A stretch of DNA of 64,000 nucleotides from a bacterium (GCA_963674595.2 CAXXFV010000018.1:32001-96000); one strand, 5' to 3'; positions 43,512-62,684 are shown, counted from the first letter of the stretch. Numbers and translations are program-made. The notes: generated by a model not told the origin, from the letters alone.

Positions 43512-43897
43512 ACATTGTTTGTTGATCATACAGTGGTTCCAACATCCGGACACAGTAATTTAAGGCTTGGCCTTTGCAGATATTAACCATCATCATCAAA
43601 AAAAGGTTACATAATTATTCGTTGGCCCCGGCCTGCAACTAATAAGAAAAAAGTATTTGCTGCCTTATAAGAGCCGGCAGGCAAAAGGTTTATCAAATGG
43701 AGTATATTTTTATCGATTAAAAGCTGAGGATCCTTTGACAGGTTCAAGACAAAGTTTTTCAGAAACAAAAAAATTAATTTTGCTAAAGTAATGTGTATGA
43801 ATTATATTGTATAATGCTTAACCGTTGTGTTCCGGATTTATCGCGCTGTTTTCATTAAATATTTTCCGGCAACCTATAATTAACGAGGGGAATTGAT

Positions 43898-45272: not shown

Positions 45273-45316
45273 TCACATCCACCAAATGACGCATTCAGTC
45301 AAAAAAAGGAACGGAT

Positions 45317-45688
45317 ATGTCTTATACTATTGAGTATCTGGAAAAAGATGGGATAATTCTGATAACAAACATCGGTGAGTTCACGCACAAAGATTTCATG
45401 AAGCAGGCCAGTGAGGCACTGGAAGTGTCGCATCGTAAGAATTGTAAAAAGTTACTGGTAGACTGCACCTCGATGATTCTCAGCTCAAATCTCATGAATA
45501 TATATAATACTTCTGACTATTATGAAGAGATTAATGCACCCAGGGAAAACAAAATAGCTTTGGTGGTTACGCCTGGATCGGCAATCGAAAAGGACATGCG
45601 GTTTTATGAAACAGTCTGCATAAATACCGGTTGGCAGGCCAAAATGTTCGGCGATGAAGAGTCGGCAATGCAGTGGCTTCAGGATTAA
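45317..45688 (+). CDS. STAS/SEC14 (SpoIIAA-like) small protein, tandem copy 2
   Basis: Closely similar to copy 1 (MSYTIE.LE..GI.LITNIG.FTHKDFMKQA). Confidence 0.7.
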   Translation: MSYTIEYLEKDGIILITNIGEFTHKDFMKQASEALEVSHRKNCKKLLVDCTSMILSSNLMNIYNTSDYYEEINAPRENKIALVVTPGSAIEKDMRFYETVCINTGWQAKMFGDEESAMQWLQD

Positions 45689-45982
45689 TACTGTCGCCCA
45701 GCATAATTTTAAACTGTCCCGGATATATTGTCATCTCACGCTTAAATAAATGAGGTGTTTTCCCCGCATAGAAAAATTAACAGGGAAAGTTTAACAACAA
45801 GGGAGAAGAGTGATTTATATCCTGATTAAAAAGGCATAACAAGGAATCCGGAGAACAAGTCAAGTGGATTTTCTGTAAGGTGTAATAAGGAATAACGAAT
45901 TGATTATTTTTTAAAAAAAATTTGCCTTCACCGGAAATTTTTACGGCTAACCAAATCGCTTATAAAAATCAAGTGAGGTATT

Positions 45983-46483
45983 ATGATACGAAAAATTGCT
46001 CTTGTAATTTTTTTACTGGTGTGTGCGTTTTATATAGCACAGGGGATATATTATTATCCGCAATTGCCGGAAAAAATCGCCTCTCATTTTACCATGTCCG
46101 GCCGGCCAAACGGGTGGATGGCTAAAAGCAATTTTATGACAATTAATTACAGCATTACGGGATTCATAATCATCACTTTTATGGGACTCAGTTTCGGCCT
46201 GTCTAAAATTCCTGTTTCCATGCTCAACATGCCCAACAAAAATTATTGGCTTTCTGATGAACAGAAACAGAAAACTTGTGATTTCATGTCACACTATATA
46301 TTATGGTTTGGCTCAATGACCGTGATGTTGTTGACATGTATCAACTATCACTTATTTCAATTCAACATAAAAAAAATGCAATTCTTGCCCTATAATAAGG
46401 AAATTTTTAGCATATATTTCGTATTTACAGCTATATGGATTTGGGGCCTGTATAAAAGATTTGGTAAAAAAGATAAATCATAA
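45983..46483 (+). CDS. DUF1648 (SdpI-like) membrane protein
   Basis: YPQLPEKIASHF..SG.PNGW..K, N.PNK.YWL. Confidence 0.85.
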   Translation: MIRKIALVIFLLVCAFYIAQGIYYYPQLPEKIASHFTMSGRPNGWMAKSNFMTINYSITGFIIITFMGLSFGLSKIPVSMLNMPNKNYWLSDEQKQKTCDFMSHYILWFGSMTVMLLTCINYHLFQFNIKKMQFLPYNKEIFSIYFVFTAIWIWGLYKRFGKKDKS

Positions 46484-46509
46484 AATATCCTGAACTATTT
46501 AAAAAACCG

Positions 46510-46537
46510 CAATGCGACAGTCCTGCCGCATTGTTTT
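46510..46537 (+). terminator. Terminator hairpin
   Basis: CAATGCGACAG-TC-CTGCCGCATTG followed by TTTT. Confidence 0.55.
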
Positions 46538-46999
46538 ATGTTCACCCTATTTAATACCGTTGCCAAGATAAACCATCATCATTAAACGGAAACGTTATTA
46601 AATTATTGTCGTTCCTGGTCCTGGGGTTAGGGCGTTCATCTTGTTATTAAAAATCACTCCACAGGTCCCCCCTTTCATACCATTCAGCGTATTAAAATTT
46701 TCCGTCCATAAAAGATTTTGCGACGAAAAACCGAATTTTCTTCAAAACCGCTTACGCCACTGACTCAAAATTCGTACAATTTATTCACCAATCATAAAGG
46801 ATTGTTTTCAGGATAATTTATCCAAGTACGGGATGGCATGACATTCCTGGTATTTTACAGTCAATATATTTTGAGTTACACGCTACAGCAGAACGGCGCT
46901 CTATAACGATCCAGTTTCTAATCGAAAATTAAAACGGTCAACTGATAAAAGACACCAGGTGTCTTTATATATATCATATTTTTATTTGGAGGTATATTA

Positions 47000-47764
47000 A
47001 TGGTCGATTTTTTGTATGAAGGAAAAAAAATATTAATAGTTGAAGATCAAGTTATTATTGCAATGAATGAGATGGAAGAATTAAAATCTGTTGGATTTAA
47101 TCCTCTTTATGCCACCTCGGGCGAAGGTGCAATAAAAATCGTTGAAGAAAAAAATGGAAATTTTGATTTAATATTAATGGATATTGATCTGGGGCATAAT
47201 AAAATTAATGGCGCAGATACGGCAAAAAAAATTTTAAAAAAATATGATATTCCTATTGTTTTTGTATCGTCACATACCGAAAAAGAGATCATAGACGAAA
47301 CTGAAAAAATTACGGCTTATGGGTACATTTATAAAAATATTGAAAATTCGTTAAAATTGGCAAGTATCAAGATGGCATTAAGGTTATCTGAAAGTACTTT
47401 AAAAATAAAACGTTCTGAAGAAAAATTCATGACGGCATTTATGCTTAATCCTGCAACCGTGTCAATAAATGACATGGAAACAAACCAAATAGTCGACTGT
47501 AATTTAGCTTTCGAAAAAATAACCGGATACACCAAAGAAGAAGCTGTTGGAAAAACGGCCGCAGAATTGAATTTTTTTGAAGATATTGAAGAATTGGGAA
47601 GAATGTTAAAAGTTATAGAAGAACAAGGTGAACTGACAAACTTTAAACATATCTTTAAAAATCGCAGAGGAGAATCATTTTTAACATATCTGTCAACAAA
47701 AAAAATATGGTTAAATAACAGGCAATATCACATGGTATGCCAAACAGAATTCGAATCATTATAA
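47000..47764 (+). CDS. Response regulator with receiver + PAS domains and no output or kinase domain
   Basis: ILIVED, DLILMDIDL, FVSSH, YIYK; N.AFEKITGY.KEE..GK. Confidence 0.85.
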   Translation: MVDFLYEGKKILIVEDQVIIAMNEMEELKSVGFNPLYATSGEGAIKIVEEKNGNFDLILMDIDLGHNKINGADTAKKILKKYDIPIVFVSSHTEKEIIDETEKITAYGYIYKNIENSLKLASIKMALRLSESTLKIKRSEEKFMTAFMLNPATVSINDMETNQIVDCNLAFEKITGYTKEEAVGKTAAELNFFEDIEELGRMLKVIEEQGELTNFKHIFKNRRGESFLTYLSTKKIWLNNRQYHMVCQTEFESL

Positions 47765-47855
47765 AAAACCAGGTAAAAAGTTGAGAACAATACCAACAAG
47801 CTGTCTTTTACTCAAGTTTATGGTTTTATAATTTTCTACATTTTTTAAAAACCCC

Positions 47856-47884
47856 TTGCACCAATGACTGAAAATTTGTAATAT
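47856..47884 (+). promoter_or_regulatory. Putative sigma70 promoter at the head of the repeat-delimited gene array
   Basis: TTGCAC-17 nt-TAATAT with TG directly before the -10 box. Confidence 0.5.
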
Positions 47885-48107
47885 TATTTTATCAGTCATA
47901 AAGGTCTGTTATTCGGGGTAATTTAATAAGTATCCCCGCTGCTCACCGGCCTTTGGCTGGTTTTCCACACACATAAATGGGCTTTATACACACACGAGGA
48001 AGAGATTGCATCTGTTATTTAATCACATTCCTGCTGGTCCGTGTTCAATATATTTTGGATTGGGTGTGGTACGTCATGTTGCAAACATGTTGATTTTTTT
48101 GATGATG

Positions 48108-48251
48108 TTGTCATCCAAAGGTTCCGGCCTTTGGATGCAGAAAAATAAAGGCTGTGCCTTTGTAAATGATAACGTTAAACAAAAATCCATGAAATGGAGG
48201 GCCGAGCCCTCATGTTATTCCGTCCAGGGGTAGAGAATCCCTGGACTATCA
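48108..48251 (+). repeat. 144-bp multi-hairpin element, copy 1 (full length, variant left stem)
   Basis: Near-identical to 55338-55481 and 57453-57596. Confidence 0.92.
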
Positions 48252-48340
48252 GAGAAAAACACACGTCAATTATGGCCTACAGTTCAAACGGGCGTTAGCA
48301 TTTATAATCAATTATCACTACTCACATAAGGAGGAGAAAC

Positions 48341-49690
48341 ATGTTTAAACGAACTTTGTTTTTTAGCCTATGTATGATATTGGTTCAAGCAGTTTTTGCT
48401 CAAATTGTAATTCATGGGACAGTGACAGATAACGGAGCCGAATATTTGGGTAACGGAGCCGAACCGGTATCAAACGCGTTTGTTAAACTGGTAGATCAGG
48501 CTGACACCAACCACATCTTTAGCTCTTATACAAATGAACAGGGGCAATATTCTTTTCAAATAACGGCAACAGGCGTTGAAAATAATTCCCTGCAAAAACC
48601 CGATGGTTTCCGGTTGCTGCAGAATTACCCCAATCCCTTTAATCCGTCTACAGTTATAAGCTATGAATTGGCCCACCCTTCTCATGTCAACATTGAAGTT
48701 TTTAACGTTTTGGGCCAGCATGTAAAAACCCTTCTTGATGCTTTTCAATATGGTTCGGGCAGCGTCGTCTGGAACGCGACAGATGACAATAACCGGGGTG
48801 TGGCTAGCGGATTATATATTTACAGCATGAAAGCGGGAGACGTTAGAATTAATAAAAAGATGTTGTTGATCGACGGTCAAATGGGCAGTACAGCTACGGC
48901 GGCAATTCATTCATCATCTGTAATGAACAATCAGCACTTTTTGAATAAACAAATGTCAGGTAAATACACTCTTTCGGTTAGCGGAGTTGATATTGAGGTT
49001 TATAAATTAGAAAATATTAATATAAGTGCGGACAGTTACATTGATGTTTCTGTTAACCGTGTAGTTAGAGACTATGACGGCAATGTTTATCGAACAGTAA
49101 AAATAGGTGCTCAATGGTGGATGGCAGAGAATTTAAAAGTAACACATTATCGTGATGGAACACCTATCCCTCATGTTCCCGATAATACTTGGACTATATT
49201 AAGAACAGGCGCTTATTGTGCTTATAATAATGATGAAAATAATGTTGCTACCTATGGTCTATTATATAACTGGAAAGCTGTAATTGACACGTGCATTATT
49301 TCCCCTGAAGGCTGGCATGTACCGACAGATGAAGAGTGGAAGCGATTAGAAAAATTTCTTGGTATGAGCGAATCTGAAACAAATAATCTCAATTATCGCG
49401 GTACAAATGAAGGAAGTAAACTTGCGGGTAATGCGGATTTATGGTCTTATGGAGACCTTGAGATAAATCCTGCATTTAACGAAAGCGGCTTTTTTGCCTT
49501 ACCCGGTGGTTGGCGCGTTTACTACGATGGAGACTTTAACGATATGGGTATAGCCGCCGTCTTTTGGTCGTCAACATTAATCAATGGTTACAGCGTGTGG
49601 CGCCGGGCAATCACCTGCGATTATTCAAGCATCCTTCGGAGCGCATACGTTAGTAACAATGGAATTTCTATTCGCTGTGTCAGAGATTAG
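48341..49690 (+). CDS. Secreted protein: carboxypeptidase-regulatory-like + FlgD-Ig + FISUMP (Fibrobacter succinogenes major paralogous) domain
   Basis: QNYPNPFNPST; D.DGNVY.TVKIG.Q.WMAENL, YG.LYNW, P.GWHVP..EEW, G.SIRCVRD. Confidence 0.88.
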   Translation: MFKRTLFFSLCMILVQAVFAQIVIHGTVTDNGAEYLGNGAEPVSNAFVKLVDQADTNHIFSSYTNEQGQYSFQITATGVENNSLQKPDGFRLLQNYPNPFNPSTVISYELAHPSHVNIEVFNVLGQHVKTLLDAFQYGSGSVVWNATDDNNRGVASGLYIYSMKAGDVRINKKMLLIDGQMGSTATAAIHSSSVMNNQHFLNKQMSGKYTLSVSGVDIEVYKLENINISADSYIDVSVNRVVRDYDGNVYRTVKIGAQWWMAENLKVTHYRDGTPIPHVPDNTWTILRTGAYCAYNNDENNVATYGLLYNWKAVIDTCIISPEGWHVPTDEEWKRLEKFLGMSESETNNLNYRGTNEGSKLAGNADLWSYGDLEINPAFNESGFFALPGGWRVYYDGDFNDMGIAAVFWSSTLINGYSVWRRAITCDYSSILRSAYVSNNGISIRCVRD

Positions 49691-49713
49691 GCTATTTATT
49701 TGTTTGACGACTT

Positions 49714-49793
49714 TGATCGTCCAAAAGTTCTGCCTCCCGGACGTGTAAAAATAAAGGCTTTACCTTTGTAAATGATGACGTTAAATAAAAATT
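49714..49793 (+). repeat. 144-bp element, copy 2 (left half)
   Basis: TGATCGTCC...CCGGACG..AAAAATAAAGGCTT.ACCTTTGTAAATGATGACGTTAAA. Confidence 0.85.
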
Positions 49794-49844
49794 TTAACAC
49801 CCGTAATAAAATGTCTGAGACCAACAAAAACAAAGGGGAAAACA

Positions 49845-50531
49845 ATGAAAATTTCCAACATCTTTTTATATGCAGCACTCGTCATGATCTTTACGAGTAC
49901 CATTTGTACGGCAACCGGCAATCACAATCCATTAAAATTTAATATCTTTGCAGCTTATGGATATTTTGATTATCGTGAAATAAGCAATAAAATAGAGGAA
50001 TTCCATAAATTAGATGCCATCGATTGGCTTCCCAATGCCGGCATTGATGTTGAATATTCTTTTTCGCGCTTTTTTATAAAAAATCAAATCTCATATTCCA
50101 GCGAAAAGCTTAAAAAAAAACATAGAAATCGAACGAATAGTTTTTCATTCCGGGAAATTCAAGACCAGTTAAAAATAGGTTGCCCTGTTATAAATAATAA
50201 ACACAATCGATTTTTCCCTTTTGCCGGAATTTTATTCCAATATCAATCTATTAAAGCCGATTTTAATTATTATTTAAAATGTCCTAGTTGTTTTTTTCAA
50301 TATAATCATGACTATGACAGTTTTACAATCGGCATAATATACGGCGCCTCTTATGAACAGAGTTTATTCTCGAAATACTTAAAGCTCGGTGTGGATGTGG
50401 GCGGCGTTATACCTGTGCAAAATAAACTATGGTGGTTCAACGGAAAAAAAATTGAAACTAAAGAATATGTTCCTGGAAGCAATTTCCAGGTTTTTGCTAA
50501 CCTGAAACTTGTTTTATGTTTTAATAATTAG
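49845..50531 (+). CDS. Secreted/outer-membrane beta-barrel-like hypothetical protein
   Basis: Signal peptide, alternating beta-strand pattern. Confidence 0.5.
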   Translation: MKISNIFLYAALVMIFTSTICTATGNHNPLKFNIFAAYGYFDYREISNKIEEFHKLDAIDWLPNAGIDVEYSFSRFFIKNQISYSSEKLKKKHRNRTNSFSFREIQDQLKIGCPVINNKHNRFFPFAGILFQYQSIKADFNYYLKCPSCFFQYNHDYDSFTIGIIYGASYEQSLFSKYLKLGVDVGGVIPVQNKLWWFNGKKIETKEYVPGSNFQVFANLKLVLCFNN

Positions 50532-50596
50532 CATGATTGTTTACCCCGGAAAAGGAATTCCGGGACGACCCAAAAATGGAAAAAAACGGAACAAAC

Positions 50597-51328
50597 ATGA
50601 ATTCAACTAAATTTATCAAATATTTTTTCGTTATAATACTTGTGAGCGGTCCTGTCTATTCGGGTATTCCATTTGGTATTAACGGGATCAAAGCCGGAAT
50701 AACATCGTCCGATTTTTATGATACAAATAGTCAATTTAATAAAGGATATCAGTTTGGTGTTTTCTGGGAAAAAAATCTGACAGACAATGCCGGCTTGTGT
50801 TGGGAAGCCGTTTATACAACCAGGGGTGGTAGAATGCCTGACGCAGCAATAATTACTGACAGGAAAACTGAGAATCCCGAATTTTACTTGTACGATATTT
50901 ATTGTTCTTCAAAATTTTTTGAAATTCCAATTTTATTAAAAATTACCATACCTGTAAATAATGACTTTTCACTATTGTTCATGTCCGGACCTTCTATTTC
51001 TACTGCCCGTACCGATAATTCTTCTCTTGATAATAAAAAAACATTTACAGGAACAGAAGATGAATATTACAAAGAACAAACGAAAACGAAAAACAATGTA
51101 AACTATGATAATGGAACATATTTCTCAAAAGAATTAGATAAAAGTATCAGATTAGCATTTAATTGGGGGATTGGATTTAAATACAAAAAATTTACCTTTG
51201 AAACAAGGTACAGCACTCTTTACCAGGATTTGGGACATCTGGAAAACATCTATTACGTTGGCCTTCGGACCTATTCAATTCAATTTATCTTAGGCGTCCA
51301 GTTTATTAATTCGAAAAGAGAACAATGA
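50597..51328 (+). CDS. Outer-membrane beta-barrel (PorT-like porin family) protein
   Basis: GIKAG, E..YT.RG, EIPILLK, GPS, ETRY, SIQF.LG. Confidence 0.75.
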   Translation: MNSTKFIKYFFVIILVSGPVYSGIPFGINGIKAGITSSDFYDTNSQFNKGYQFGVFWEKNLTDNAGLCWEAVYTTRGGRMPDAAIITDRKTENPEFYLYDIYCSSKFFEIPILLKITIPVNNDFSLLFMSGPSISTARTDNSSLDNKKTFTGTEDEYYKEQTKTKNNVNYDNGTYFSKELDKSIRLAFNWGIGFKYKKFTFETRYSTLYQDLGHLENIYYVGLRTYSIQFILGVQFINSKREQ

Positions 51329-51987
51329 AAAAAAGTATAATAACAATTTTTATCATCATTATGGCCCACTCTTGCGTTGCAGGTTATCGTATATATGGTG
51401 GGAGTACTTTTTCTAAACTCAACACAAATAACAGCCGAATTCGCATCAACAATTCATTTGGTATTGATAAAACCTGGGATACAAAGTTTTTTAGTACAGC
51501 ACTGGGATTAAGGCTCATCATTCGAAGCACATACAAGGCCGATAATATCATGGTTTTCGGCATGACGAATCACGGATACTATTTTGACGCATTATTTTCA
51601 GCAGGTTACCTTGAAGTTCCATTAATGGTAATCTTGCCAATATATACCCATAATTCTATAAAAATAAGTTTCACCGTGGGACCTTCAGTCGGCATACACC
51701 TTTTGGATAATTCTAAAAAGTTTAATACGGAATATTTTGAGTTTGAACAGAATCCCGAATTGAGACAAACACTTGAAAATTACTATATGGAAGCCGACGA
51801 GCTTTATCCCAATAAACCGGTATTTTTAAACACCGGGATTATGGCTGAATATAAAAATATGTATATTGAAGCCCGCTATAATCACGGACTATCAGAATTA
51901 GGGGAGCTTTCCGGTTTAGTGATGAAAAATGAAAAATTTAGAACGCTGGAAATTGTATTTGGTATCTATATAAGAAATAGAAACTGA
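51325..51987 (+). CDS. Outer-membrane beta-barrel (PorT-like) protein
   Basis: YLEVPL, VGPSVG, IEARYNHGLS; ATGA overlap with the preceding paralogue. Confidence 0.7.
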   Translation: MKKSIITIFIIIMAHSCVAGYRIYGGSTFSKLNTNNSRIRINNSFGIDKTWDTKFFSTALGLRLIIRSTYKADNIMVFGMTNHGYYFDALFSAGYLEVPLMVILPIYTHNSIKISFTVGPSVGIHLLDNSKKFNTEYFEFEQNPELRQTLENYYMEADELYPNKPVFLNTGIMAEYKNMYIEARYNHGLSELGELSGLVMKNEKFRTLEIVFGIYIRNRN

Positions 51988-52002
51988 GTTATACAAACAC
52001 AC

Positions 52003-52134
52003 AGAGGGCCAGGCTCTTTTGCTAATCCGTGCAAGGAAAGGCATGGACCCTTGGACGATCAAAAATTTTGAAAAATGTTCTATTCAATATTTTGGATTTG
52101 GGATGAATTCCTTGTTTCATTGATTCCGCAGGGG
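52003..52134 (+). repeat. Variant (type B) element, rearranged: right-end hairpins followed by the type-B core
   Basis: GAGGGCC..GCTCT...CCCTTGGACGATC then AAAAATTTTGAAAAATGTTCTATTCAATA...GGGG, shared with ~56200-56275. Confidence 0.75.
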
Positions 52135-52242
52135 ATAAAATATGATTCAACCAAAATTTTAAATTTCAAATCCCTGCACAATCGGTAATTTTAATTTCGG
52201 CCCGGTTTGGTAATATTCCGTAGCGAGTGAAAAGAGGTATAT

Positions 52243-53028
52243 GTGATCAATAAAAATCTGTTAATAATTATAATGAATTGTATATTTTTTAGTTATGGTT
52301 ATTTAAACGCCTGTCCACAAGACAGTTCTTGTATAGATAACATACAATGTGATGGAAAAAGTTATTATCTGAAAATCTTTCCATCCGGTTCAAACAACGT
52401 AAATGGAATCGGGGTAAAATATTTTGCACCCTTGTCATATCAAATATGTGATACCATCCGAATAAATGGAGCACATATCGATATAAATCCATTACATAGT
52501 GTAATGGGAGCTTTAGCTGCAGGTATTTCGATTTTTATAATACCTGGGCACTCTATTACCAAAATTATGGAAACAAGAGATAATTTAGAAAATAATGAAA
52601 TATTCAGGGATTCAACATTTGAAATATATTCAGGTACGGAAATAAACGGGATTTCATTATCCATATCCAATCTATTCCCATATCATAATAATGGAATTAA
52701 TGTTTGTTTACTATATGGCGAATTTGCTGATGTTAATGGATTATCCATTTCCGGATTTATAAGTACTTTTGATGATTTTAACGGAATCTCATTCTCCTTA
52801 ATATATAATAAATGTCATAATATACAGGGAACCTTTATATCGGGAATAGGCAATAGCGTTTCAAATGGAAAATGGTTTTCATTTGCCGGATTATATAATG
52901 AAAGTGTTAATTTTACTGGCGTGCAAATCGGCCTGTTTAATTTTACTAAAAAGTTAAAAGGAATCCAACTGGGATTATGGAATTCAAATGGTAAAAGATC
53001 ATTACCTTTAATAAACTGGCAATTTTAA
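52243..53028 (+). CDS. LA_2272-like surface repeat protein
   Basis: Repeated NG.S.S..N units, GVQIGLFN, GIQLGLWN.N.KRSLPLINW.F. Confidence 0.75.
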   Translation: MINKNLLIIIMNCIFFSYGYLNACPQDSSCIDNIQCDGKSYYLKIFPSGSNNVNGIGVKYFAPLSYQICDTIRINGAHIDINPLHSVMGALAAGISIFIIPGHSITKIMETRDNLENNEIFRDSTFEIYSGTEINGISLSISNLFPYHNNGINVCLLYGEFADVNGLSISGFISTFDDFNGISFSLIYNKCHNIQGTFISGIGNSVSNGKWFSFAGLYNESVNFTGVQIGLFNFTKKLKGIQLGLWNSNGKRSLPLINWQF

Positions 53029-53083
53029 TTTCTGTCCGGTTTGGTAATATTCCCGGAACGGACCGGCGTTAAGGTGACATATT

Positions 53084-54517
53084 ATGAAAATAAAAATCCA
53101 AATTTTATCAATTCTTTTCATTATAACGGCCTCTTGTTCGGATAACAAAGAAAAACCGTATATTGGTTCATACTCAATGCTGTGTGGTGGCGGAGGATTC
53201 TATGTTTTAAAAATAGAAAAAAATAAAAATTTTGAATATTATTGCTGGAATGATGTTGGCGGCTATTATACAGGTCTTAATGGGAAATATACTATTTCGG
53301 ATGAAAAATTGTTTATAAACATTTATTATCCCGTAAACAGTGACACACATGCCGTCCGGCGTGATACTTTATTCTTTAAGAGATATAAAGATTACCAATT
53401 TTTAGTATCATCTTTATCCATAAACAGGTTTAACGAATCATTAAAAAATAATGATATGCAACGTTGGTATTGGATTGATGAAAATACAAAGCATCATTCT
53501 GGTTTATTATGCTACATGAAAGTTGATGAGAAAGACCTGCCTGTTAAGGATGAAAAAATAGAATGGGATATTGTAAAAAATCCGAAAAGTGTTGCTATCG
53601 AAGCGCCCACGCCTCCACATCTTCCGGTTTACATGCCATCACATATACCAATAGAAGCCTTGCCCGTTCAGAATGAATGCCCTGAATTTCAGATTTATGA
53701 AGAAGAAATTAAATGGCGCCTATTTGAAAAAAATATCAGCGATACGTTAAGAATTCTGCGTAATAACATATTTGCAAAATACGGCTATCCGTTTAAATCA
53801 AAAGACCTTAAAAGCTACTATGAGCATAAAAAATGGTATAAAGCTAATCCGGATTATGACCACTCGCAAATTACAAGTAAAGACAGTACCACAATTCAAA
53901 CAATACTCAAATATGAAAACCTGCTGGGTACCCTGAGTGCCGATAGTGTTAAACTTTTAAAAAACATTTTTGATTTTCGAAAACAACTGCTTGCCACAGG
54001 ATATGATACGACCATAACCGTACATAAAAACATCACCGGAAACAAGCACAATGACGAGTTTACAACACGCATAAAAATTCAAAATGAAAAAATATTTGTT
54101 GAAAATATTTTAAAAAACCAGGACCAGTTACTGTGGTCGGAATTATTTAGTGATGAACCATGTGTCGATTCTTACACGATGGAAAATGATAATATTTTAA
54201 AAACATATCCGAAATATGGTTATTTTTACATTCTTGTAAAAGATTATCTTGATACAGTCATACCAAGGGCAGAGCCTTTGTCAAAAAATTATGTCGAGTT
54301 ACAAATTACCGGCAATGATACAAGTTACAGCTTTAGTTGGACAGGTTCCAACTGTCAAGACCATTCCAACCGGTTTAAAAAGTATTTATATAATTTTAAC
54401 GGCAATCAGGTACTGTTCTCTCAGGGCTTCTGTCTATACGATGAGGATGTTGGCTATGATGTTAAGGTATGGAACAAATTTTCAAATGATTTTGTTATGC
54501 TCTGGTCCGGACCATAA
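53084..54517 (+). CDS. YARHG-domain lipoprotein
   Basis: Lipobox TASC; LRILRNNIFAKYGYPFKSKDL..YY....WY. Confidence 0.8.
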   Translation: MKIKIQILSILFIITASCSDNKEKPYIGSYSMLCGGGGFYVLKIEKNKNFEYYCWNDVGGYYTGLNGKYTISDEKLFINIYYPVNSDTHAVRRDTLFFKRYKDYQFLVSSLSINRFNESLKNNDMQRWYWIDENTKHHSGLLCYMKVDEKDLPVKDEKIEWDIVKNPKSVAIEAPTPPHLPVYMPSHIPIEALPVQNECPEFQIYEEEIKWRLFEKNISDTLRILRNNIFAKYGYPFKSKDLKSYYEHKKWYKANPDYDHSQITSKDSTTIQTILKYENLLGTLSADSVKLLKNIFDFRKQLLATGYDTTITVHKNITGNKHNDEFTTRIKIQNEKIFVENILKNQDQLLWSELFSDEPCVDSYTMENDNILKTYPKYGYFYILVKDYLDTVIPRAEPLSKNYVELQITGNDTSYSFSWTGSNCQDHSNRFKKYLYNFNGNQVLFSQGFCLYDEDVGYDVKVWNKFSNDFVMLWSGP

Positions 54518-54558
54518 CAATCTTTAGGGTGTGGTTCTACCGCCCCATTAAAGATTCA

Positions 54559-54653
54559 GATCGTCCGGAGGTTCCGGCCTCCGGACGCAAAAAATAAAGA
54601 CTTTGCATTTGTAAATGATATCGTTAAATAAAAAATTTATAATTTAGAGGGTC
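54559..54653 (+). repeat. 144-bp element, copy 4 (left two-thirds)
   Basis: GATCGTCCGGAGGTTCCGGCCTCCGGACG...TTTGTAAATGATATCGTTAAA...GAGGG. Confidence 0.85.
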
Positions 54654-54694
54654 TGCTCGCCTTGGGAATATTTTCCAAGCGACAATTAAAAGCA

Positions 54695-54779
54695 TCCTTT
54701 GTGAGCTTTGAGAACTTTGAGAGGATAAAAAAAGCACTCACAAAGCGCACAGAGCACACAAAGGAATAATAATTAAATC
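54695..54779. repeat. 9-nt-period hairpin repeat upstream of GxxExxY
   Basis: TCCTTTGTGAGCTTTGAGAACTTTGAGAG ... CTCACAAAGCGCACAGAGCACACAAAGGA. Confidence 0.8.
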
Positions 54780-54829
54780 TATTGTGACATTGAAAAAATT
54801 TGAGATGAAAAAAATGGGGCGTCTATTTA

Positions 54830-55210
54830 ATGAATGAAAATGAAATTTCTAAAACTGTTATTGATTGTGCGATAAAAATCCACAAGATACTCGGTCCCGG
54901 GCTACTGGAATCAGTTTACCGTGATGTGCTGGCTTTTGAATTAAACAAAACCGGATTATCGGTTGAAATAGAAAAGGATATTCCTGTAATTTATAAAAAT
55001 TTAAAATTTGATAAAGGCTTTAGAGCAGATATCATCGTTGAGAATAAAGTTCTTTTGGAACTTAAATCGGTTAAAAAACTGCAAGACATTCATTATAAGC
55101 AAACATTAACATATTTAAGACTAATCGGTTTTAAACTGGGATTAATTATTAATTTTAATCATATACTATTAAAGGACGGAATTAAAAGAATCATTAACGG
55201 AACGATATAG
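54830..55210 (+). CDS. GxxExxY protein (PD-(D/E)XK nuclease superfamily)
   Basis: IH..LGPGLLESVY, FRADIIVE.KV.LELKS, Q.LTYL, GL.INF. Confidence 0.93.
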   Translation: MNENEISKTVIDCAIKIHKILGPGLLESVYRDVLAFELNKTGLSVEIEKDIPVIYKNLKFDKGFRADIIVENKVLLELKSVKKLQDIHYKQTLTYLRLIGFKLGLIINFNHILLKDGIKRIINGTI

Positions 55211-55250
55211 CTTTTCATAAAGCTCGCAGACTAGAAAAAAAATAATTAAA

Positions 55251-55319
55251 TCCTTTGTGAGCTTTGAGAGCTTTGTGAGAGGATAAAAAAAAGCACACAA
55301 AGGAATAATAATTTAAATC
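55251..55319. repeat. 9-nt-period hairpin repeat downstream of GxxExxY (direct repeat of 54695-54779 lacking two units)
   Basis: TCCTTTGTGAGCTTTGAGAGCTTTGTGAGAGGATAAAAAAAAGCACACAAAGGAATAATAAT. Confidence 0.8.
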
Positions 55320-55337
55320 ATCCCTTGTGGCCTTTTT

Positions 55338-55481
55338 TGATCGTCCGGAGGTTCCGACCTCCAGACGTGTAAAAATAAAAGCTTTGCCTTTGTAAATGAT
55401 AACGTTAAACAAAAATCTATGAAATGGAGGGCCGAGCCCTCATGTTATTCCGTCCAGGGGTAAAGAATCCCTGGACGACCA
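55338..55481 (+). repeat. 144-bp element, copy 5 (full length)
   Basis: TGATCGTCCGGAGG...CGTCCAGGGG..AGAATCCCTGGACGACCA. Confidence 0.92.
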
Positions 55482-55783
55482 CATTTTACCTTCCCTACAA
55501 ATTTGTGCCGATTATGGAGGCGCACAGCCGTACGTTTCTGCTATTTTTAAAATTCGTTAAAAATCCCTTGCATTGATTTTATGCAAGTTGTAAAATTATT
55601 TATCATGCATCTTTTGAATATTTCCTGATCGCCCGATATTATAGCCACAAATAAGGAATGTTTGACCTAAAAAGACCAGGCCCTTTTATTAATCCGAGGA
55701 AAAAGATTATAAAATCAAACAAACAAGTTTTTCTTCTGTTGTAAAAGCAGATGTATTATAGTCGTCAGCGAGAGGAGGATTCT

Positions 55784-56158
55784 ATGAGTTATAAAATAAC
55801 AATATCTGAAAATGGTGAGTATATTATTGGTAAAATCTATGGACCATTAAATAGAGAGACCGCCCAACAATTGACTAGAGAATATGTTAAAATTATTAAT
55901 TCAACAGGCATTAAAAAGATTCTGAACGATGTTCGTGATGCTCCTGATGCTATGGGCATTTTTAATGACTATGAATTCGCCTATAAAGACACTAAAGCTC
56001 TTAATCTTCCTATGGATATTCAAGCTGCCTTTGTAACGGATCCCAATGACAATACTCATAATTTCCATGAGACAGTTGCTGTTAATGCGGGCTATTTTGT
56101 TAAAGTATTTAAGGAAATAGAGTCAGCCGTTACCTGGCTTTTAGAAGAAAAACGCTAA
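55784..56158 (+). CDS. STAS/SEC14 (SpoIIAA-like) small protein, distant third paralogue
   Basis: K.L.DVR, F.ETVA.NAG..VKVF...ESA..WL; GGAGG before ATG 55784. Confidence 0.7.
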   Translation: MSYKITISENGEYIIGKIYGPLNRETAQQLTREYVKIINSTGIKKILNDVRDAPDAMGIFNDYEFAYKDTKALNLPMDIQAAFVTDPNDNTHNFHETVAVNAGYFVKVFKEIESAVTWLLEEKR

Positions 56159-56167
56159 TCCGGCGCT

Positions 56168-56328
56168 TGATCGTCCGGTAGTTCCGGCCTCCGGACGCAG
56201 AAAAAATTTTGAAAAATGTTCTATTCAATACTTTGGAGTTGAGATGAAATCCCTGTTTCATTGGTTCCACAGGGGCTTGCAAGCCCCCATATTGCTCCGT
56301 CCAGGAGTAGAGAACCCTTGGACGATCA
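56168..56328 (+). repeat. Variant (type B) element, full length 161 bp, same terminal hairpins with a different core
   Basis: TGATCGTCCGG...CCTCCGGACG ... GGGGCTTGCAAGCCCC ... CGTCCAGGAG..AGAACCCTTGGACGATCA. Confidence 0.88.
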
Positions 56329-56511
56329 CATGACCAGACAAGTGGAATTTATTTTTTCAGATTACAATCGGATAATTTTTCAGAGACAAAAAAATTAGTT
56401 TTTCAAAAATAATATCAATTGAACAGCGCAAATTCAATGTATTATCTAACGCCCTGGAACAAAATTTCAGGGATAGCAAGACTCTATTTGTAAAATAGTT
56501 TAGGATAATTT

Positions 56512-57297
56512 ATGAAGATTGATGATTTATCAACACTAACACAGTTTGCATTGAAATTGTATAAAATAGACCAACTTTCAGTAAAAGCTGTTATAAATAA
56601 AGATATAAAAGAATTGAGCTTACTTATAAGTCAATATTCCTCAATCAAAAAGGAAATTAAAACAAAATTAATAAAGCATCATTATGTCGAAATCCAAGAT
56701 CATAAAGCGAAAGAAATTCTACAAAAAATCAGTCACCAAGAACCTTTATTAACGGATAAAATAATCGAGCATTTATCAAAAAAATCTATTGAAACACTTG
56801 AACTAGATGAATTGGATGAGGAAGAAATCAATTCATTAGGTTCTGAATTTCTTTATTCTTGGTTTAGTCATTATGAATATATTCGTAACCTGTATAGTAT
56901 TAGCTCATTAATTTTGGGTATTTCTATACCAAATCAATTAAAGCAATTAGTTACAGAAGCAAGGTTGTGTTATGCTTTTGAAAGAACCTATGCGGTTTGT
57001 TCATTATGTCGTACTATTTTAGAGGTGGTTATTAAAGATATTTGTGTTCGGGGTCAACTATTACAATCAAATAAAAAAGGCAATCTAAATTTTGATGACT
57101 ATTCAACAAAAGATCTACGTGATACAGTATCAGATGGCGACTTAAACGATGATATAAAAAATTTGTACCGGAAAACAAGTTCAGTTATTCATGGTAATAA
57201 AGATATATCAATTGAAGTGATCAGTACTTTCAAACAAACTATCAAAATAGTACAAAAATTATATACTAAACATGAGTTAATCCTTGAAAAAAGATAA
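56512..57297 (+). CDS. DUF4145/HEPN-like domain protein
   Basis: EA..CY....YAV..LCR..LE...K and S..IHG; very AT-rich gene. Confidence 0.55.
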   Translation: MKIDDLSTLTQFALKLYKIDQLSVKAVINKDIKELSLLISQYSSIKKEIKTKLIKHHYVEIQDHKAKEILQKISHQEPLLTDKIIEHLSKKSIETLELDELDEEEINSLGSEFLYSWFSHYEYIRNLYSISSLILGISIPNQLKQLVTEARLCYAFERTYAVCSLCRTILEVVIKDICVRGQLLQSNKKGNLNFDDYSTKDLRDTVSDGDLNDDIKNLYRKTSSVIHGNKDISIEVISTFKQTIKIVQKLYTKHELILEKR

Positions 57298-57452
57298 ATT
57301 CATTTGTTTATATAACAACACTAATGCATTTTATAAAAAGATTATTTATTTTTGTGATTAAATTAAGGGTAGTAACAGGTGTTTTTATAACCAATCATCT
57401 AACTGCTCTTCCAAGGATTCCTTTTATTGTACATGAATAATTAGAGTATCTT

Positions 57453-57596
57453 TGATCTTCCGGAGGTTCCGACCTCCGGACGCAGAAAAACAAAGGCTGT
57501 GCCTTTGTAAATGAAAACGTTAAACAAAAATCCATGAAACGGAGGGCCGAGCCCTCATGTTATTCCGTCCAGGGGCAGAGAATCCCTGCACGATCA
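57453..57596 (+). repeat. 144-bp element, copy 7 (full length)
   Basis: Near-identical to copies 1 and 5. Confidence 0.92.
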
Positions 57597-57797
57597 CAAT
57601 ATTTAAAAAATTATTAAAAATATTTCCTGTGGAATTTTTGCGTAAAAAATAATATTTTCTAAAAATCGTATCGAAATTTAGAAAATATACTATTCGGAAA
57701 AAATAGAATGAAAAGATTTTTAGCGCTATCCCCTGCCCTGCTCATTATAATTTTATTACCTTGAAATTGCAATAAAAAAATGGACACCTAGTTAAGT

Positions 57798-58619
57798 TTA
57801 AGCTGCTTTATTAAATTTTAAGAATTGTACTGGTGACATATTGCCCAAAAAGGAATGAATTCTTTTTCGGTTGTAAAATATTTCAATATATTCAAATATT
57901 GATTGCTTCGCAATTAATCGTGTTTCATAAGTATGATGATAAATCAGTTCTTTTTTCAAAGTACCAAAAAAGCTTTCAGCCACAGCGTTGTCGTAGCAGT
58001 TTCCTTTTCCGGACATACTTTGGACCATTTGAAAAAGAGCTAACATTTTTCTGAATTCTTTACATGCATATTGAACACCACGGTCCGAATGAAAAATCAA
58101 ATCTGTTGAAGGACGAAAACGATGATATGCATGTTTTAGGGCCGGGATTGTTGTTGAAGAAGCATGCAGGTTGTTACTCATGGCCCAGCCGACAACCTGG
58201 CGATTGTATAAATCAATGATCACTGTCAGGTACAACCATCCTTTGCGAGTCGGGATGTATGTAATATCAGAAACCCAGACTTTATTGGGTTGATTGACTG
58301 TAAAATTCTGTTGTAAAAGATTTGGTGATATTGGCAGTCTGTGATCACTATTTGTGGTTACTTTGAATTTACGTTTTGTTTTTGCACAAATTTTGTTCTT
58401 TCTCATTAAACGAGCAACACGCGGACGGCTGACAATCAAGTTTTCCTTATGTAACTCTTGTGTTATTCTGGGACTGCCATAGCTTCCTCTGGATTCCTTG
58501 TGGATATGTTTGATCCGTTCAAGTATCTTTTTGTTTTCCAGTTCTCGTTGACTCATTGGTCGCTTGCTCCAGGTATAAAACCCGCCCCGGCTGACATTGA
58601 GAACCTGGCACATTTTCAC
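57798..58619 (-). CDS. IS3 transposase OrfB (DDE integrase core), probably fused to OrfA by a -1 frameshift
   Basis: YGSPRI, WVSDITY, HSDRGVQY, S.KGNCYDNAVAESFF..LK.E, YN.KR.HS. Confidence 0.95.
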   Translation of the reverse strand: MKMCQVLNVSRGGFYTWSKRPMSQRELENKKILERIKHIHKESRGSYGSPRITQELHKENLIVSRPRVARLMRKNKICAKTKRKFKVTTNSDHRLPISPNLLQQNFTVNQPNKVWVSDITYIPTRKGWLYLTVIIDLYNRQVVGWAMSNNLHASSTTIPALKHAYHRFRPSTDLIFHSDRGVQYACKEFRKMLALFQMVQSMSGKGNCYDNAVAESFFGTLKKELIYHHTYETRLIAKQSIFEYIEIFYNRKRIHSFLGNMSPVQFLKFNKAA

Positions 58620-58660
58620 TATTGGGAATTCCTGTTGATGCTTTTGGATAAACCCAAACT

Positions 58661-58957
58661 TTAATGGGACGGTTTTGAGAAAATGGCCACAGCTTTTTTT
58701 AATATATCCCGCTCCAGTTTTACGTCTGCAAGTTCTTTACGCAGTTTCTGTATTTCATCACTTTCTTTGCTGTTCCCTAGTCCTGGAAAGGAATGTTCTT
58801 TATCAATTTTGTATTCTCGAACCCACTTGGAGAGAAGGTTAGGCTCAATACCAAGATTTCTGGCAACTTCTGAAGCATTACCATTGCTTTTAGAAAGTAC
58901 AAGCTGAACAGCTTCTATTTTGAATTCTTTTGTGTAACGTCGTCTTCTGTTTGTCAT
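58661..58957 (-). CDS. IS3 transposase OrfA (HTH)
   Basis: RRYTKEFKIEAV, VARNLGI...L..W, ERDILKKA; A7G slippery site at 58693-58700 on minus. Confidence 0.93.
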   Translation of the reverse strand: MTNRRRRYTKEFKIEAVQLVLSKSNGNASEVARNLGIEPNLLSKWVREYKIDKEHSFPGLGNSKESDEIQKLRKELADVKLERDILKKAVAIFSKPSH

Positions 58958-60425
58958 GTGGACACCTCCTTTGGTTTATAATATAAAAAGTGCTTAACTT
59001 TGTGTCCACTAAAATATAGCAAGTTTACCTGCCTGTAACAATAGCAAACAAAATGGAGAGAAAAAAGGCGAAATCCCAAAACCACTCCATCTGACATTGG
59101 AACAAGCGGACCGTCTTGCCGAACTGCCCCTGGCGTGTATGCAAACAGAGTATCCCAACAAATTGGGACAAACACTGGGCGGCAAAAAAGATATCGGCGA
59201 ACCGCATGTATTACATCCGGCATTTTACGGCTGTTATGACTGGCATTCTGCGGTCCACGGGCACTGGTCACTGGTAAAACTATTAAAGGAATTTCCTCAA
59301 TTAGCCAGAGCCGATGAGGTCCGTTTAAAACTGCAGCAAAACATCACAAAACAAAATATTCTGGCAGAGGTGGCTTATTTTGAGGGTAAACACAACAAGT
59401 CATACGAACGGACCTATGGATGGGCGTGGCTGTTAAAGCTGGCTGAGGAATTGTATACCTGGGATGATCCGTTGGCAAAACAGTTGTCACAAAACCTTCA
59501 GCCATTAACAGATTTGGTTGTTCAGAGATATATCGAATTTCTGCCCCGGTTAAAATATCCCATCAGAGTGGGCGAACACACCAATACGGCTTTTGGATTG
59601 TGCTTTGCCTGGGATTATGCCAATACAACACAGCACGAACAACTGAAATCGGCAATAGAATCCAGGGCCCGGGATTTTTACATGGACGATATAAACTGTC
59701 CCCTGGGCTGGGAACCGAGCGGTTATGACTTTTTATCACCCTGTCTTGAAGAGATCGACCTGATGCGCAGAATATTGAATAAAGCCGAGTTTAAAAACTG
59801 GCTTGACGGATTTTACCCCCGGCTTGAGGATAAAAACTTCAAACTGGAACCGGGCCAGGTTTCGGACCGAACAGACGGCAAACTTGTTCATCTGGACGGC
59901 TTAAATTTCAGCCGGGCCTGGGTTTTATATGGTTTGGCTGGCCAATACCAGGAATATAAACACCTGATAAATAGTGCCAACGAACATATAGAATACTCTT
60001 TACCCAACCTGGTAGGTGACAGTTACGAAGGCGGCCACTGGCTGGGCTCATTTGCTATCTATGCTCTCAATAGTTTTTCCGAAAGATAAAATATTATCTG
60101 GTCTACCTGCATGGCAATGAAAAAACAGGATCCTTGTCTACTTGTTTTTCAGCTAATGCGATGTTTTAAATATAAAAGGGGGAAATTATCAAAATTATGC
60201 ATTTTAATACCGGCCCACCGAGGGATGGCAAATAGAATTTGTCAAATTATAGCTTGCGCCAATAGATCATAATTTGTATTATTCCTTTATCAGTTGTCAA
60301 GGTTTGCTTTTCAATGCTTTATTCGTGATACCTTTGGCTGATTTACCACTTTACCAATTACAAGAGAATTATTGTGGGCGGCTTTTATCCAGTCTGATTG
60401 TTGGCAAAATAAAGGAGAGCCAGAA

Positions 60426-62684
60426 ATGAAATCAATAAAGACTCTTTTATTTTTTTTAATGCTTAATTTTATAAATCCCCTTTTAGCAGCAAACCAGATT
60501 GTAACGAACAATAATGATTCAGGAGCAGGATCGCTCAGGCAGGCCATTTCAGATGCCTCCATAGGTGATGAAATCACATTCAATCTCGCTGCAGGCAATG
60601 AAACGATTGTCCTTACTTCTTCTGTATTGTTTATATCAAAATCCTTAACAATTGACGGGTCTAACTCATTGGGCAGTGGTACTCAAATAGCTATTGATGG
60701 TGATGACACTCACCGTGTGCTGGAGATTATCGGAGGTTTAGTATCATTAAAAAACATGACAATCCAGAATGGGTATTCTCCGGATGGAGGCGGTGGAATT
60801 CATAATTCAATCTATGATATGTGGTTGACTATTAACAACTGCCAAATTATAAATAATACCGGGGGACATGATTATACTGGGGGAGGCGGCATATGCAATG
60901 AGGGGATTATCGACATTATTTCGAATACAACTTTTAGCGGCAATTATTCAGGAAAGTATGGGGCCGGTATTTATAATCGCGGAACAATTTTCGGCATATC
61001 ACAATGTACAATAAATGATAATATTTTATCTTCTAAAAACGGTGGCGGTTTGTATAACGACACAGATGGAACGATCTATACTATTGACAACTCGACAATA
61101 AGCGGAAATATGTTTGCCGATTATGGAGGGGGATTATATAATTCCGGTACAATTTCTCAAATCGATTTTTGTACGATTGCCAATAACCAGGCAGATAATG
61201 GAGGTGGAATATATCTGGATGGAGGCAGTGTAACAATTAAAAATTCAATCAGTGCCAATAATGCGGCGACATTCGATGGTGATGATTATTATCGAAACAG
61301 CGGAACACTGACAGATAACGGGTACAACATTGTCGAAAACTCAAATGTGCCCGCTTTCGGAAACGGATTTAATAACATAAATACGATTTTATACAACACA
61401 ATATATAATAACATAACCACCTCCAACACCACCTGGACAAAAGGTGGAACAGCTTTAAGCAATCAAAACCTGTCGCTTTCCGCTACGTTAGCCGATAACG
61501 GCGGTTCGACTCAAACTCTCGCGGTGAACGCCGGCAGTTTTGCCATCGGCAGCGGGTATTATGCCAGCACTATTACCACAGATCAGCGAACTGTGAGCCG
61601 GGTTAGTCCACCCACAATCGGGGCCTATGAAATGAACCAGGCCGTCACCTTCACAGACGGAAGTGCTTATTCGCCCGCTCCGGTTCCCGGTCAAACCAAT
61701 CAGCCTATCGGACGGTTCGCATTGCAGGCCGCCGGTAATGGAAGTGTGTTAACCGGCGCCGACATGACGCTGAATAATACACGAAGCGGTGTAACGAATT
61801 TTAAACTGTGGGCAAGCGCAGACGCTGATTTTAACGCGGGATCAGATACACAACTGGGCTCTACAGTTGCCGCAGATCCCGGCGATGGCAATTCAGTGAG
61901 TTTTTCAGATTTTTCAAGCAGTATCGGAACATCGGCCGGATATTTCTTTCATACATGTGATATTGCTTCGGATGCTGAGGGCAGTATTAAAGGAGTTGTT
62001 GCCGGCAATGCTTCACTAAGTGTTATTGGCGGTGAAATTTCCGGCACACTCAGCAACGAACCACTTTCCAGCGGCGACACCTCATTGCCTGTCAATCTGG
62101 GGCTGTTCACTGCTAGTCAGGAGGGCATATCTGTTATACTCGATTGGACCACAGAAAGTGAAATGAATAACCTGGGTTTTATTTTACATCGGTCTGAAGA
62201 TAAAACTCAATGGCAGAAAATTGCTTCCTATAAAACATGTGCTGAGCTTAAAGGCCAGGGTTATTAATCAACTCGGACAACATATTGTTATATCGACAAA
62301 AAGGTAACTCCTGAAACAGGGTATTACTATCGTATTTCTGATGTGACTGTATCAGGAGAGACCAGGACCTATAACCCGATTTTCATTCAGCTTGATAAAT
62401 TACCGAACGAAACTTTTCTGGGAAAACCATATCCCAACCCCTTCAATCCGCAAACATATATTTCCTATAAATTAAAGAACGAAAGTCTTGTGAATATATC
62501 CGTGTATGATATGCTTGGCAGATTAGTCAAAGTCCTTTATAATGATAATCAGTCGGCAGGATATTATAATGTGTTTTGGAACGGGACAGACGAAAACGGC
62601 CAACAGGCTTGCTCGGGTACCTATATAATCTGTATGCAGACAGATGACAAAAGGCAAATTCAAAAAGTGCTATATCTAAAATAG
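60426..62684 (+). pseudogene. Secreted beta-helix / choice-of-anchor Q protein with FlgD-Ig/T9SS-type tail, interrupted by an in-frame TAA at 62265-62267
   Basis: VTNNNDSGAGSLRQAI, GGG[IL]YN repeats, LADNGG.TQT...DQR...IGAYE, LPVNL..F.A, W.TESE.NN.GF; the frame continues past the TAA (STRTTY.YID...) into YPNPFNP at 62343-62684. Confidence 0.8.

Follow-up and report, generated by a model that had tools for sequence, protein, structure and literature searches.

A probable REP/RAYT system behind an apparently enzyme-less gene array in an uncultured bacterium

A stretch of bacterial DNA of 64,000 nt (GCA_963674595.2 CAXXFV010000018.1:32001-96000, called here the window, and part of contig C18 of genome G000) carries an array of small accessory genes punctuated by co-oriented copies of a structured repeat. 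Which enzyme, if any, serves this repeat, and are the genes between its copies captured cassettes? The preliminary description, made from the sequence alone, found no mobilising enzyme in view and proposed either an integron-like platform for gene capture or shuffling, with a recombination site of its own, or a family of REPIN or MITE (miniature inverted-repeat transposable element) type that mobilises genes between pairs of copies. The analysis presented here indicates that the repeat is very probably the non-autonomous partner of a RAYT (REP-associated tyrosine transposase, REP standing for repetitive extragenic palindrome), an enzyme of the HUH/Y1 class, which cuts single-stranded DNA. The gene for this enzyme, located on another contig, C29, would constitute with its flanking repeat units a REPtron or TIRtron, and the genes of the islands would be ordinary residents rather than captured cassettes.

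Copies of the repeat were collected with an iterated nhmmer profile, seeded with three 148-nt copies from the window (48106, 55336, and 57451) and run genome-wide. The 104 matches, on both strands, collapse to 52 loci, and since every locus is matched on both strands, the left half of the element is the reverse complement of its right half. In the alignment of all genomic copies, the element is ~145 nt long and forms an inverted doublet of a two-hairpin unit of ~55-60 nt. It starts with TGATCG, followed by hairpin 1 (10-bp stem, 6-nt loop), an A-rich spacer, hairpin 2 (6 bp), and a variable centre of ~35-40 bases, after which come hairpin 3 (6-7 bp), a T-rich spacer, hairpin 4 (10 bp), and the terminal CGATCA. 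In the basic unit, the GATCG foot is followed by a 10-bp hairpin, which a short spacer separates from a 6-bp hairpin. According to our classification, 20 of the 52 loci are full, 12 contain only the left half, 18 only the right half, and 2 are internal pieces.

The secondary structure was evaluated on an alignment of 17 full copies, using a hand-written structure with shuffle and slide controls; RNAalifold, applied to a MAFFT alignment, recovered only a part of hairpin 4. In the four local hairpins, 84% of the cells pair, and changes on both sides are present in 18 of 32 pairs, compared to 8.1 ± 1.9 in the shuffles, none of which (0/500) reach the observed value. The shuffle control overstates the significance because copies residing in one genome share descent. 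The slide control, which is free of this weakness, lowers the pairing from 84% to 28-55% once the partner columns are shifted. Compensatory changes have preserved the four local hairpins. When folded as single-stranded DNA, all six sequences give four hairpins, each better than all of 200 shuffles, with z from -4.8 to -9.3. The repeat, initially described as structured and ~144 bp long, is thus borne out as a ~145-nt element with four co-varying hairpins.

A search of the whole genome with the Pfam Y1_Tnp model points to eight places, one of them C29:40834-41013. It belongs to an intact open reading frame (ORF) of 181 aa (G000:C29:40579-41121), positioned between a left half (C29 41200-41125) and a right half (40611-40523) of the element. 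The locus reads in order foot, hairpin 1, hairpin 2, 21 nt, ATG, the 181-codon ORF, TAG, hairpin 3, hairpin 4, and foot, so that a gene for an HUH enzyme flanked by the hairpins of the repeat, which the preliminary description had advised to look for, is indeed present. On NCBIfam NF047646, "REP-associated tyrosine transposase" (equivalog, cut-off 80), the encoded protein reaches 102.2 bits, with positions 1-146 of the 146 in the profile covered. Eight aligned sequences, orthologues as well as paralogues, all share its HxH motif and the tyrosine of Y-[IL]-H-x-N-P, and this tyrosine aligns with chain residue 115 of E. coli TnpA-REP (PDB 4er8), which we take to be the catalytic one. Only one copy of the gene exists in the genome; C29:188857-189390 and C26:87966-88496, which come next, are 50% and 48% identical, the latter carrying one in-frame TAG, and the hairpins that flank these two paralogues and a third one (C23:97891-98440) differ from those of the element. 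Other genes of the Y1 type, at C23:900985, C23:918599, and C7:35097, are IS200-like, the two on C23 being near-identical copies. The REPIN/MITE alternative of the preliminary description is therefore supported in kind, the element being an extragenic inverted doublet and its halves enclosing a single-copy RAYT gene on another contig. The statement that no mobilising enzyme is in view holds within the window for the repeat's own enzyme, although an insertion sequence (IS) of the IS3 family is found there at 57759-59029, right after the last copy.

The arrangement on C29 also resembles that of IS200/IS605 elements, in which subterminal hairpins are present at both ends of a Y1 transposase gene. 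According to such an explanation, the C29 gene would encode the working transposase of an autonomous IS200/IS605-type IS, and the short elements would be its internally deleted derivatives, similar to MITEs or PATEs (palindrome-associated transposable elements), which arrived together with horizontally acquired islands, in place of a domesticated RAYT system of long residence. The last ~25 nt of the gene, preceding hairpin 3, recur in the centre of many short elements, which for this reason look like internal deletions of the gene-bearing form, as deletion derivatives would. The copies share with the gene a confinement to repeat-rich island contigs, and the Pfam Y1_Tnp score, 27.4 bits, exceeds the cut-off of 23. 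However, this putative IS has only one copy of the gene, with paralogues that are at most 50% identical and are accompanied by other hairpins, and no tnpB. The protein reaches 24.3 bits on the IS200 model NF033573, below the cut-off of 55, whereas the RAYT model was passed, and the copies, 66% alike on average, speak against a recent burst. We therefore regard this explanation as improbable and the RAYT assignment as the better description of the C29 gene.

The same layout is found in relatives. Orthologues of the RAYT are present in four other genomes, namely two public records of metagenome-assembled genomes (MAGs; 69% and 57% identity), G018 (56%), and G013 (50%). All four are bracketed on each side by a foot, a long hairpin, and a short hairpin, with stems that differ between the genomes and are still complementary; the sequence profile built on G000 recognises the flanks solely in the two closest ones, L010 and L009. 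As the two halves of the element bracket the RAYT gene on C29 and the same layout recurs in these four relatives, we assign the repeat and the gene to a REP/REPIN-RAYT system. A covariance model of the element was also run on 18 other genomes of the same taxonomic family, none of them of the same genus as G000. Copies were found in 9 of the 18, with 27 matches in G013, 10 in G011, 7 in G010, 6 in G003, 4 each in G017 and G012, 3 in G008, 2 in G009, and 1 in G001, where both strands of one locus are counted. All nine belong to the 13 genomes with a RAYT-like match (E <= 0.001), compared to none of the five without it (G002, G004, G007, G014, and G016); these genomes are kin rather than independent samples, and the counts are given without statistics. 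The four genomes with a RAYT-like match and no match of the model are G018 and G015, where the former is strong, and G005 (3e-15) and G006 (8e-6), where it is weak. The best named matches of the MetH protein encoded in the window are from a "Cytophagia" MAG (66%) and a KSB1 MAG (65%), and the host probably represents an uncultured lineage similar to candidate division KSB1, an assignment that is not firmly established.

The system shows the layout by which REPtrons and REPIN-RAYT systems are defined (PMC3116915; 10.1101/119735; PMC6006769). The features shared with REPIN-RAYT systems (PMC3116915; 10.1101/119735) include an extragenic inverted doublet of a palindromic unit that is also found singly, a single-copy HUH/Y1 gene flanked by the same units, and several RAYT paralogues per genome, each with its own hairpins. 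The unit described here is larger, comprising two hairpins and ~55-60 nt compared to ~20-25 nt for a REPIN unit, and there are only 52 loci, which are diverged, with flanking 16-mers occurring 2-3 times, in place of the tens to more than 100 given for RAYT groups 2 and 3 (10.1101/119735). As in the E. coli REPtron (PMC3333891, PMC8266576), the gene is bracketed by its REPs and the HUH motif and catalytic tyrosine are conserved. The closest resemblance is to the TIRtrons (TIRYT) of Di Nocera et al. 2013 (PMC3733652). These have "double palindromic" terminal inverted repeats, long and in part self-complementary, on both sides of a RAYT-like gene, and the repeats form moderately abundant families of singles, dimers, or clusters; the GGGGWSAS motif given for TIRtrons in that text was not seen by eye in the element. 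Membership among the CGTC-tagged REPs of the same source was considered and rejected. These are described as having an unpaired terminal CGTC, an 8-9 bp stem starting with A-T pairs, a 4-5 nt loop, and a CCA tail (PMC3733652); in the element described here, CGTC lies inside a G+C-rich stem of 10 bp with a 6-nt loop. The two-hairpin unit, the GATCG foot, and a second, co-distributed repeat family are features of its own. An apparently enzyme-less "cassette array" is thus replaced by a named system for which the location of the enzyme gene is shown, and the REP/RAYT systems on record gain a member from an uncultured and little-known lineage.

Several observations weigh against this assignment. 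The similarity of the protein to the solved structure of E. coli TnpA-REP (PDB 4er8) is marginal (E 0.017). The foot is (T)GATCG / CGATC(A), in contrast to GTAG in classical REPs. The commonest exact 16-mers flanking the RAYT gene occur only 2 and 3 times in the genome, below what the published criterion of Bertels et al. 2017, a highly abundant exact 16-mer in the flanks, demands, because the copies are too diverged to share exact words. Covariation supports the local hairpins and, unlike in a REPIN, not the pairing of the left end with the right end: 75% of the cells of such a "REPIN hairpin" can pair, and 432 of 500 shuffles reach the observed percentage. The copies are old and diverged, with a mean column identity of 66% among the 17 full ones, and no movement was seen: a near-identical strain (X3, discussed below) has the copies 49713, 52003, 54559, and 55337 in the same places. 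Finally, their distribution is not random, since 47 of the 52 loci are located on the four contigs C29 (19), C13 (10), C26 (10), and C18 (8). Pseudomonas REPIN doublets are reported to be randomly distributed in extragenic space (PMC3116915), whereas the copies described here are regionally clustered and follow the orientation of genes.

The mode of action that the assignment implies is modelled on better-known systems, and we infer both the cleavage chemistry and the mechanism of copying by analogy. The enzyme, like E. coli TnpA-REP and the IS200/IS605 transposases, would recognise the hairpins on single-stranded DNA, cut beside the conserved foot, and then rejoin the ends. Short elements would in this way be copied or moved into intergenic DNA, mostly over short distances, and over time a few variable gene islands would be filled with co-oriented copies.

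All 52 loci are located between genes, as judged from ORF-based gene calls made in this analysis; 47 of them touch no called ORF, and the other five are overlapped by ORFs of 75-92 aa alone. The four contigs that hold most of the copies make up 9.5% of the genome and 16.4% of its intergenic DNA, and a random intergenic placement would put a mean of 8.5 loci on them, and at most 20 in any of 5000 trials. Eight copies fall in the densest 15 kb, compared to a random mean of 2.5 and maximum of 6, and on C18 all 8 copies are found within 14 kb of the 127-kb contig. The starts of C13 (reverse complement) and C26 overlap exactly over 107 nt. The two contigs are consequently probable neighbours, which gives 14 co-oriented copies over ~97 kb, and as the overlap lies inside a FISUMP paralogue, the assembly broke in a repeated gene. 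C29, C13, C26, and C18 also abound in other reused intergenic sequences; the element has no copy on C3, C5, C19, C10, or C25, which are repeat-rich too. A binning artefact is an unlikely cause of the clustering, as the copies on C18 bunch within the contig and identical IS3 copies link C18, C29, C3, and C8. The clustering in arrays, which the preliminary description had suggested to look for, is therefore real, and copies evenly scattered in both orientations, the pattern that it had named as typical of an ordinary dispersed repeat, are not what is observed.

Orientation follows the genes. Among the 38 copies placed between same-strand genes, 32 share the strand of these genes (binomial p 2e-5, with local copying not corrected for), and along C26 and C29 the orientation of the copies flips with the local gene strand. 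The local GC skew flips too, and because it follows the gene strand, replication and transcription are indistinguishable as the factor that sets the orientation. Both this behaviour and the confinement to variable gene islands differ from the random spread of textbook REPINs, and either could bear on how single-strand transposases choose their targets, acting locally or on strands exposed by transcription or replication.

A common orientation of repeats and genes would also be expected if the repeats were mainly cis-acting RNA or DNA structures of the host, such as 3'-end terminators or mRNA stabilisers maintained by selection, with a transposase-like gene in their vicinity by accident. Five of the eight copies in the window begin no more than 45 nt past an upstream stop codon, the stems co-vary, and a terminator scan of the consensus found hairpin 3 on the + strand and hairpin 2 on the - strand to be terminator-like. 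However, the T-runs are weak, the window has no Rfam match at gathering thresholds, and the preference for gene 3' ends that is seen in the window fails genome-wide, where the median distance is 107 nt to the upstream stop and 89.5 nt to the downstream start. Such an explanation would also leave the halves that bracket the RAYT gene in five genomes unaccounted for, and we consider it very unlikely as the main one. In addition to being partners of a RAYT, the repeats may well have a host role, as the REPs of E. coli do.

Kinship among the copies is local. Every nearest-neighbour pair at an identity of at least 0.90 falls within one cluster, and the close sets consist of a trio in the window, C13 4915/11460, C26 2128/4590/7550, C29 44148/44452, and C29 95131/124097. 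In six of seven close pairs, the similarity stops at the ends of the element, dropping from 0.85-0.96 within it to 0.42-0.58 in the 60-nt flanks; the seventh pair follows the ends of paralogous FISUMP genes. Such clean-ended pairs would result if the element itself were copied over short distances, and gene conversion between neighbours is also possible. The half-copies 49713 and 52002 belong to different subfamilies, and their nearest relatives are 55337 (0.83) and a copy on C13 (0.72), respectively. As these are different copies, the idea that the two are parts of one doublet split by an insertion of genes was rejected.

Contigs of four public runs (X1, X3, X4, and X5) were compared with the window over 42000-61000. 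Most joints, which have sides of 20-31 letters, were set aside as probably due to other repeat copies, and uncovered parts (X3 before 49500) were left uninterpreted. X1 shows 0 differences and is probably the source sample. X3, which comes from another study and is ~1% different, is collinear over 49510-52090 and 52075-56230, spanning four copies. X5 (~3% different) is collinear over 42001-47241, save for a 425-bp deletion between two SpoIIAA-like paralogues, which would fuse them. These paralogues, 65% identical as proteins, stand in tandem at 44883-45688 in the window. The IS3 element is missing from its site in X3 and X4 (a clean joint with a side of 140), and in X4 a copy abuts 55105 instead. 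A contig of X5 runs from 50398 to 52036 and, after 296 unrelated letters, continues with 49763-49869 at 93% identity, the breaks falling inside a right unit (52036) and inside a left unit (49763). This joint could represent a second, diverged gene unit placed after the first one; it is not a clean junction, as 296 unrelated letters separate its sides and one of them is only 93% alike.

A break in a right half followed by resumption in a left half is reminiscent of a cassette array, in which the repeat would serve as the recombination site of an integron or of another recombinase. Structured repeats of ~60-145 nt that punctuate the array at intervals of one to three co-oriented accessory genes are also common to both, and the genome does encode a genuine integron integrase. 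This single enzyme (C3:115823-116767, TIGR02249 454 bits, cut-off 265) is, however, located on another contig and is accompanied by other sites. The locus C3:111900-116812, on the - strand, comprises the integrase followed by three same-strand genes separated by classical attC-like inverted repeats that end in GTTAGGT or GTTAGGC. This layout, with the integrase and its putative cassettes in one orientation, is unusual, and large CRISPR arrays directly adjoin the locus. The core of its sites, AACGTTAGGY, occurs 10 times in the genome, twice beside the integrase, and does not occur on C18 or C13. Of the 8 Phage_integrase (tyrosine-recombinase) matches in the genome, none falls on C13, C18, C26, or C29. 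The element itself ends in TGATCG and CGATCA, with no GTTRRRY core, which agrees with the initial remark that it lacks attC architecture. Since the integrase, the recombinases, and the attC core are all found off C18, the repeat in the window is not the site of the C3 integron. Promoter modules inside the array, together with the imperfect X5 joint, also count against an array of cassettes. The integron-like capture platform of the preliminary description is thus not supported, and the explanation, largely refuted, is left with a negligible probability.

Mobilisation of genes between pairs of copies, the other proposal, was not shown either, as X3 keeps the gene order over four copies and the units 49713 and 52002 differ in subfamily. 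A related possibility is that left and right units also bracket cargo other than the transposase gene, giving "L-cargo-R" units that are moved or duplicated within the islands by RAYT-type enzymes, which would thereby shuffle accessory genes. The pair 49713/52002 brackets three genes described as outer-membrane beta-barrels, located at ~82-89 of the model, the same position that the RAYT gene (~76) occupies in its own locus; two more left-right pairs on C29 bracket 5.4 and 9.7 kb; the X5 contig leads from a right unit into a left one, beyond which the first cargo gene starts a second time; and copying is local and keeps the orientation. The subfamily difference between 49713 and 52002 counts against it, as does the presence of 27 half-copies in co-oriented clusters, among which ordered left-right pairs are expected by chance, and no second copy of any cargo was seen in the genome. 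We consider this extension of the RAYT system quite improbable.

Within the window, repeat finding yields three copies of 148 nt (48106, 55336, and 57451), 86-100% identical to the reference copy, five copies of an 81-nt left part (48106, 49712, 54555, 55336, and 57451), six of the first hairpin (48107, 49713, 54557, 55337, 56167, and 57452), and four of a 62-nt right part (48205, 55435, 56282, and 57550). The nhmmer profile finds eight loci, every one on the + strand. All seven copies listed in the preliminary description are real and share this strand (E 1e-33 to 6e-07), and the list overlooked a half-copy at 43522-43595 and a decayed fragment at 55636-55697. No copy was found by the profile and the covariance model at 1-43521 or at 57599-64000, as had been noted for the first 43 kb.

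The first locus along the window is the left half at 43522..43595 (model 1-75, E 7.2e-10, also matched by the covariance model), which begins 11 nt past the stop of a YbaK-like gene. The first full copy, 48106..48253 (nhmmer 48111-48251, model 5-144, E 2e-31, covariance model 147.8 bits, fold z -5.9), is positioned between a promoter-plus-leader module (47828-48075) and the FISUMP gene. A left half-copy follows at 49712..49794 (nhmmer 49713-49794, model 1-82, E 7e-12), 23 nt past the FISUMP stop codon, and a right half-copy at 52002..52062 (model 89-145, E 6.4e-07), 15 nt past the third beta-barrel gene. The left half-copy at 54557..54653 (nhmmer 54559-54653, model 3-97, E 9e-15), which starts 42 nt past the YARHG gene, reaches into the centre. 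The full copy at 55336..55483 (nhmmer 55337-55481, model 1-144, E 1.3e-33, covariance model 157.7 bits, z -5.4) is followed by the decayed fragment, 55636..55697 on the + strand, which comprises the centre and the third hairpin with no fourth hairpin, and which blastn aligns at 80-82% with the same part of copies on C29 and C26. A full-length variant with a foreign centre at 56167..56328 (model 1-144, E 3e-14) is matched by three short repeat families. The last member of the array is the full copy at 57451..57598 (nhmmer 57452-57596, model 1-144, E 1.5e-32, covariance model 153.7 bits, z -4.8), with the IS3-family element beginning 160 nt beyond it. The distances from the upstream stop codon to the seven originally listed copies are 347, 23, 15, 42, 127, 9, and 155 nt, and four of them indeed fall within 45 nt.

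The foreign centre of the variant belongs to a second repeat family, module B, with a core of ~48 nt and 39 loci (C13 19, C29 13, C26 4, C18 2, and C3 1), two of them in the window at 52061-52136, directly 3' of the right half-copy, and at 56202-56288. The variant at 56167-56328 retains hairpins 1, 3, and 4, with its second hairpin and centre swapped for module B (56202-56277). On C13 and C18, every copy of module B is on the same strand as the main element, and it often abuts the right end of the latter. As one copy is located just downstream of the RAYT paralogue with the in-frame stop (C26:87966-88496), module B is probably the repeat of that paralogue.

The first 43 kb of the window consist of ordinary metabolic and regulatory genes, such as those of MetH, a rhamnosidase, and a sigma-54 activator, and from 43.5 kb on the genes are of small accessory types. 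Family models identify FISUMP with a type IX secretion system (T9SS) tail, two outer membrane protein (OMP) beta-barrels, YARHG, PDDEXK_3/GxxExxY, and an LA_2272-repeat protein. Most of the labels given in the preliminary description are thereby confirmed; the other three, namely the first "beta-barrel" (49845-50531), the "STAS/SEC14" gene (55751-56158), and the "DUF4145-like" gene (56512-57297), have no Pfam or NCBIfam match. The 135-aa product of the "STAS/SEC14" gene is a 27-30% identical paralogue of the SpoIIAA-like pair. The FISUMP genes in the window (48341-49690) and on C26 (2286-4556) are 72% identical, and both have copies of the element on either side. The YARHG protein, used as a query, found no relative in a metagenome scan. 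The flanking DUF2891 gene has no counterpart among the 18 family genomes; for the flanking glycosidase, G011 alone contains a close orthologue (56% identity).

Several other repeated features are present in the same region. The IS3-family element, with orfA at 58661-58957 and orfB at 57798-58619 on the - strand, has five copies in the genome at 98.6-100% identity. A 36-nt direct repeat (92% identity) lies just before the LA_2272-repeat gene (52184-52219) and across its end (53018-53053). The GxxExxY (PD-(D/E)XK) gene is bracketed by direct repeats of ~70-85 nt (54694-54780 and 55250-55316), which contain inverted repeats of their own, and together with them the gene may form a separate small mobile unit. 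A promoter-like sequence with a conserved leader of ~200 nt is reused before unrelated genes at 47828-48075 and 55541-55605 in the window, at C3:116782-116981, and at at least 15 other loci; the C3 copy is directly upstream of the integron integrase gene, and its similarity extends into the first codons.

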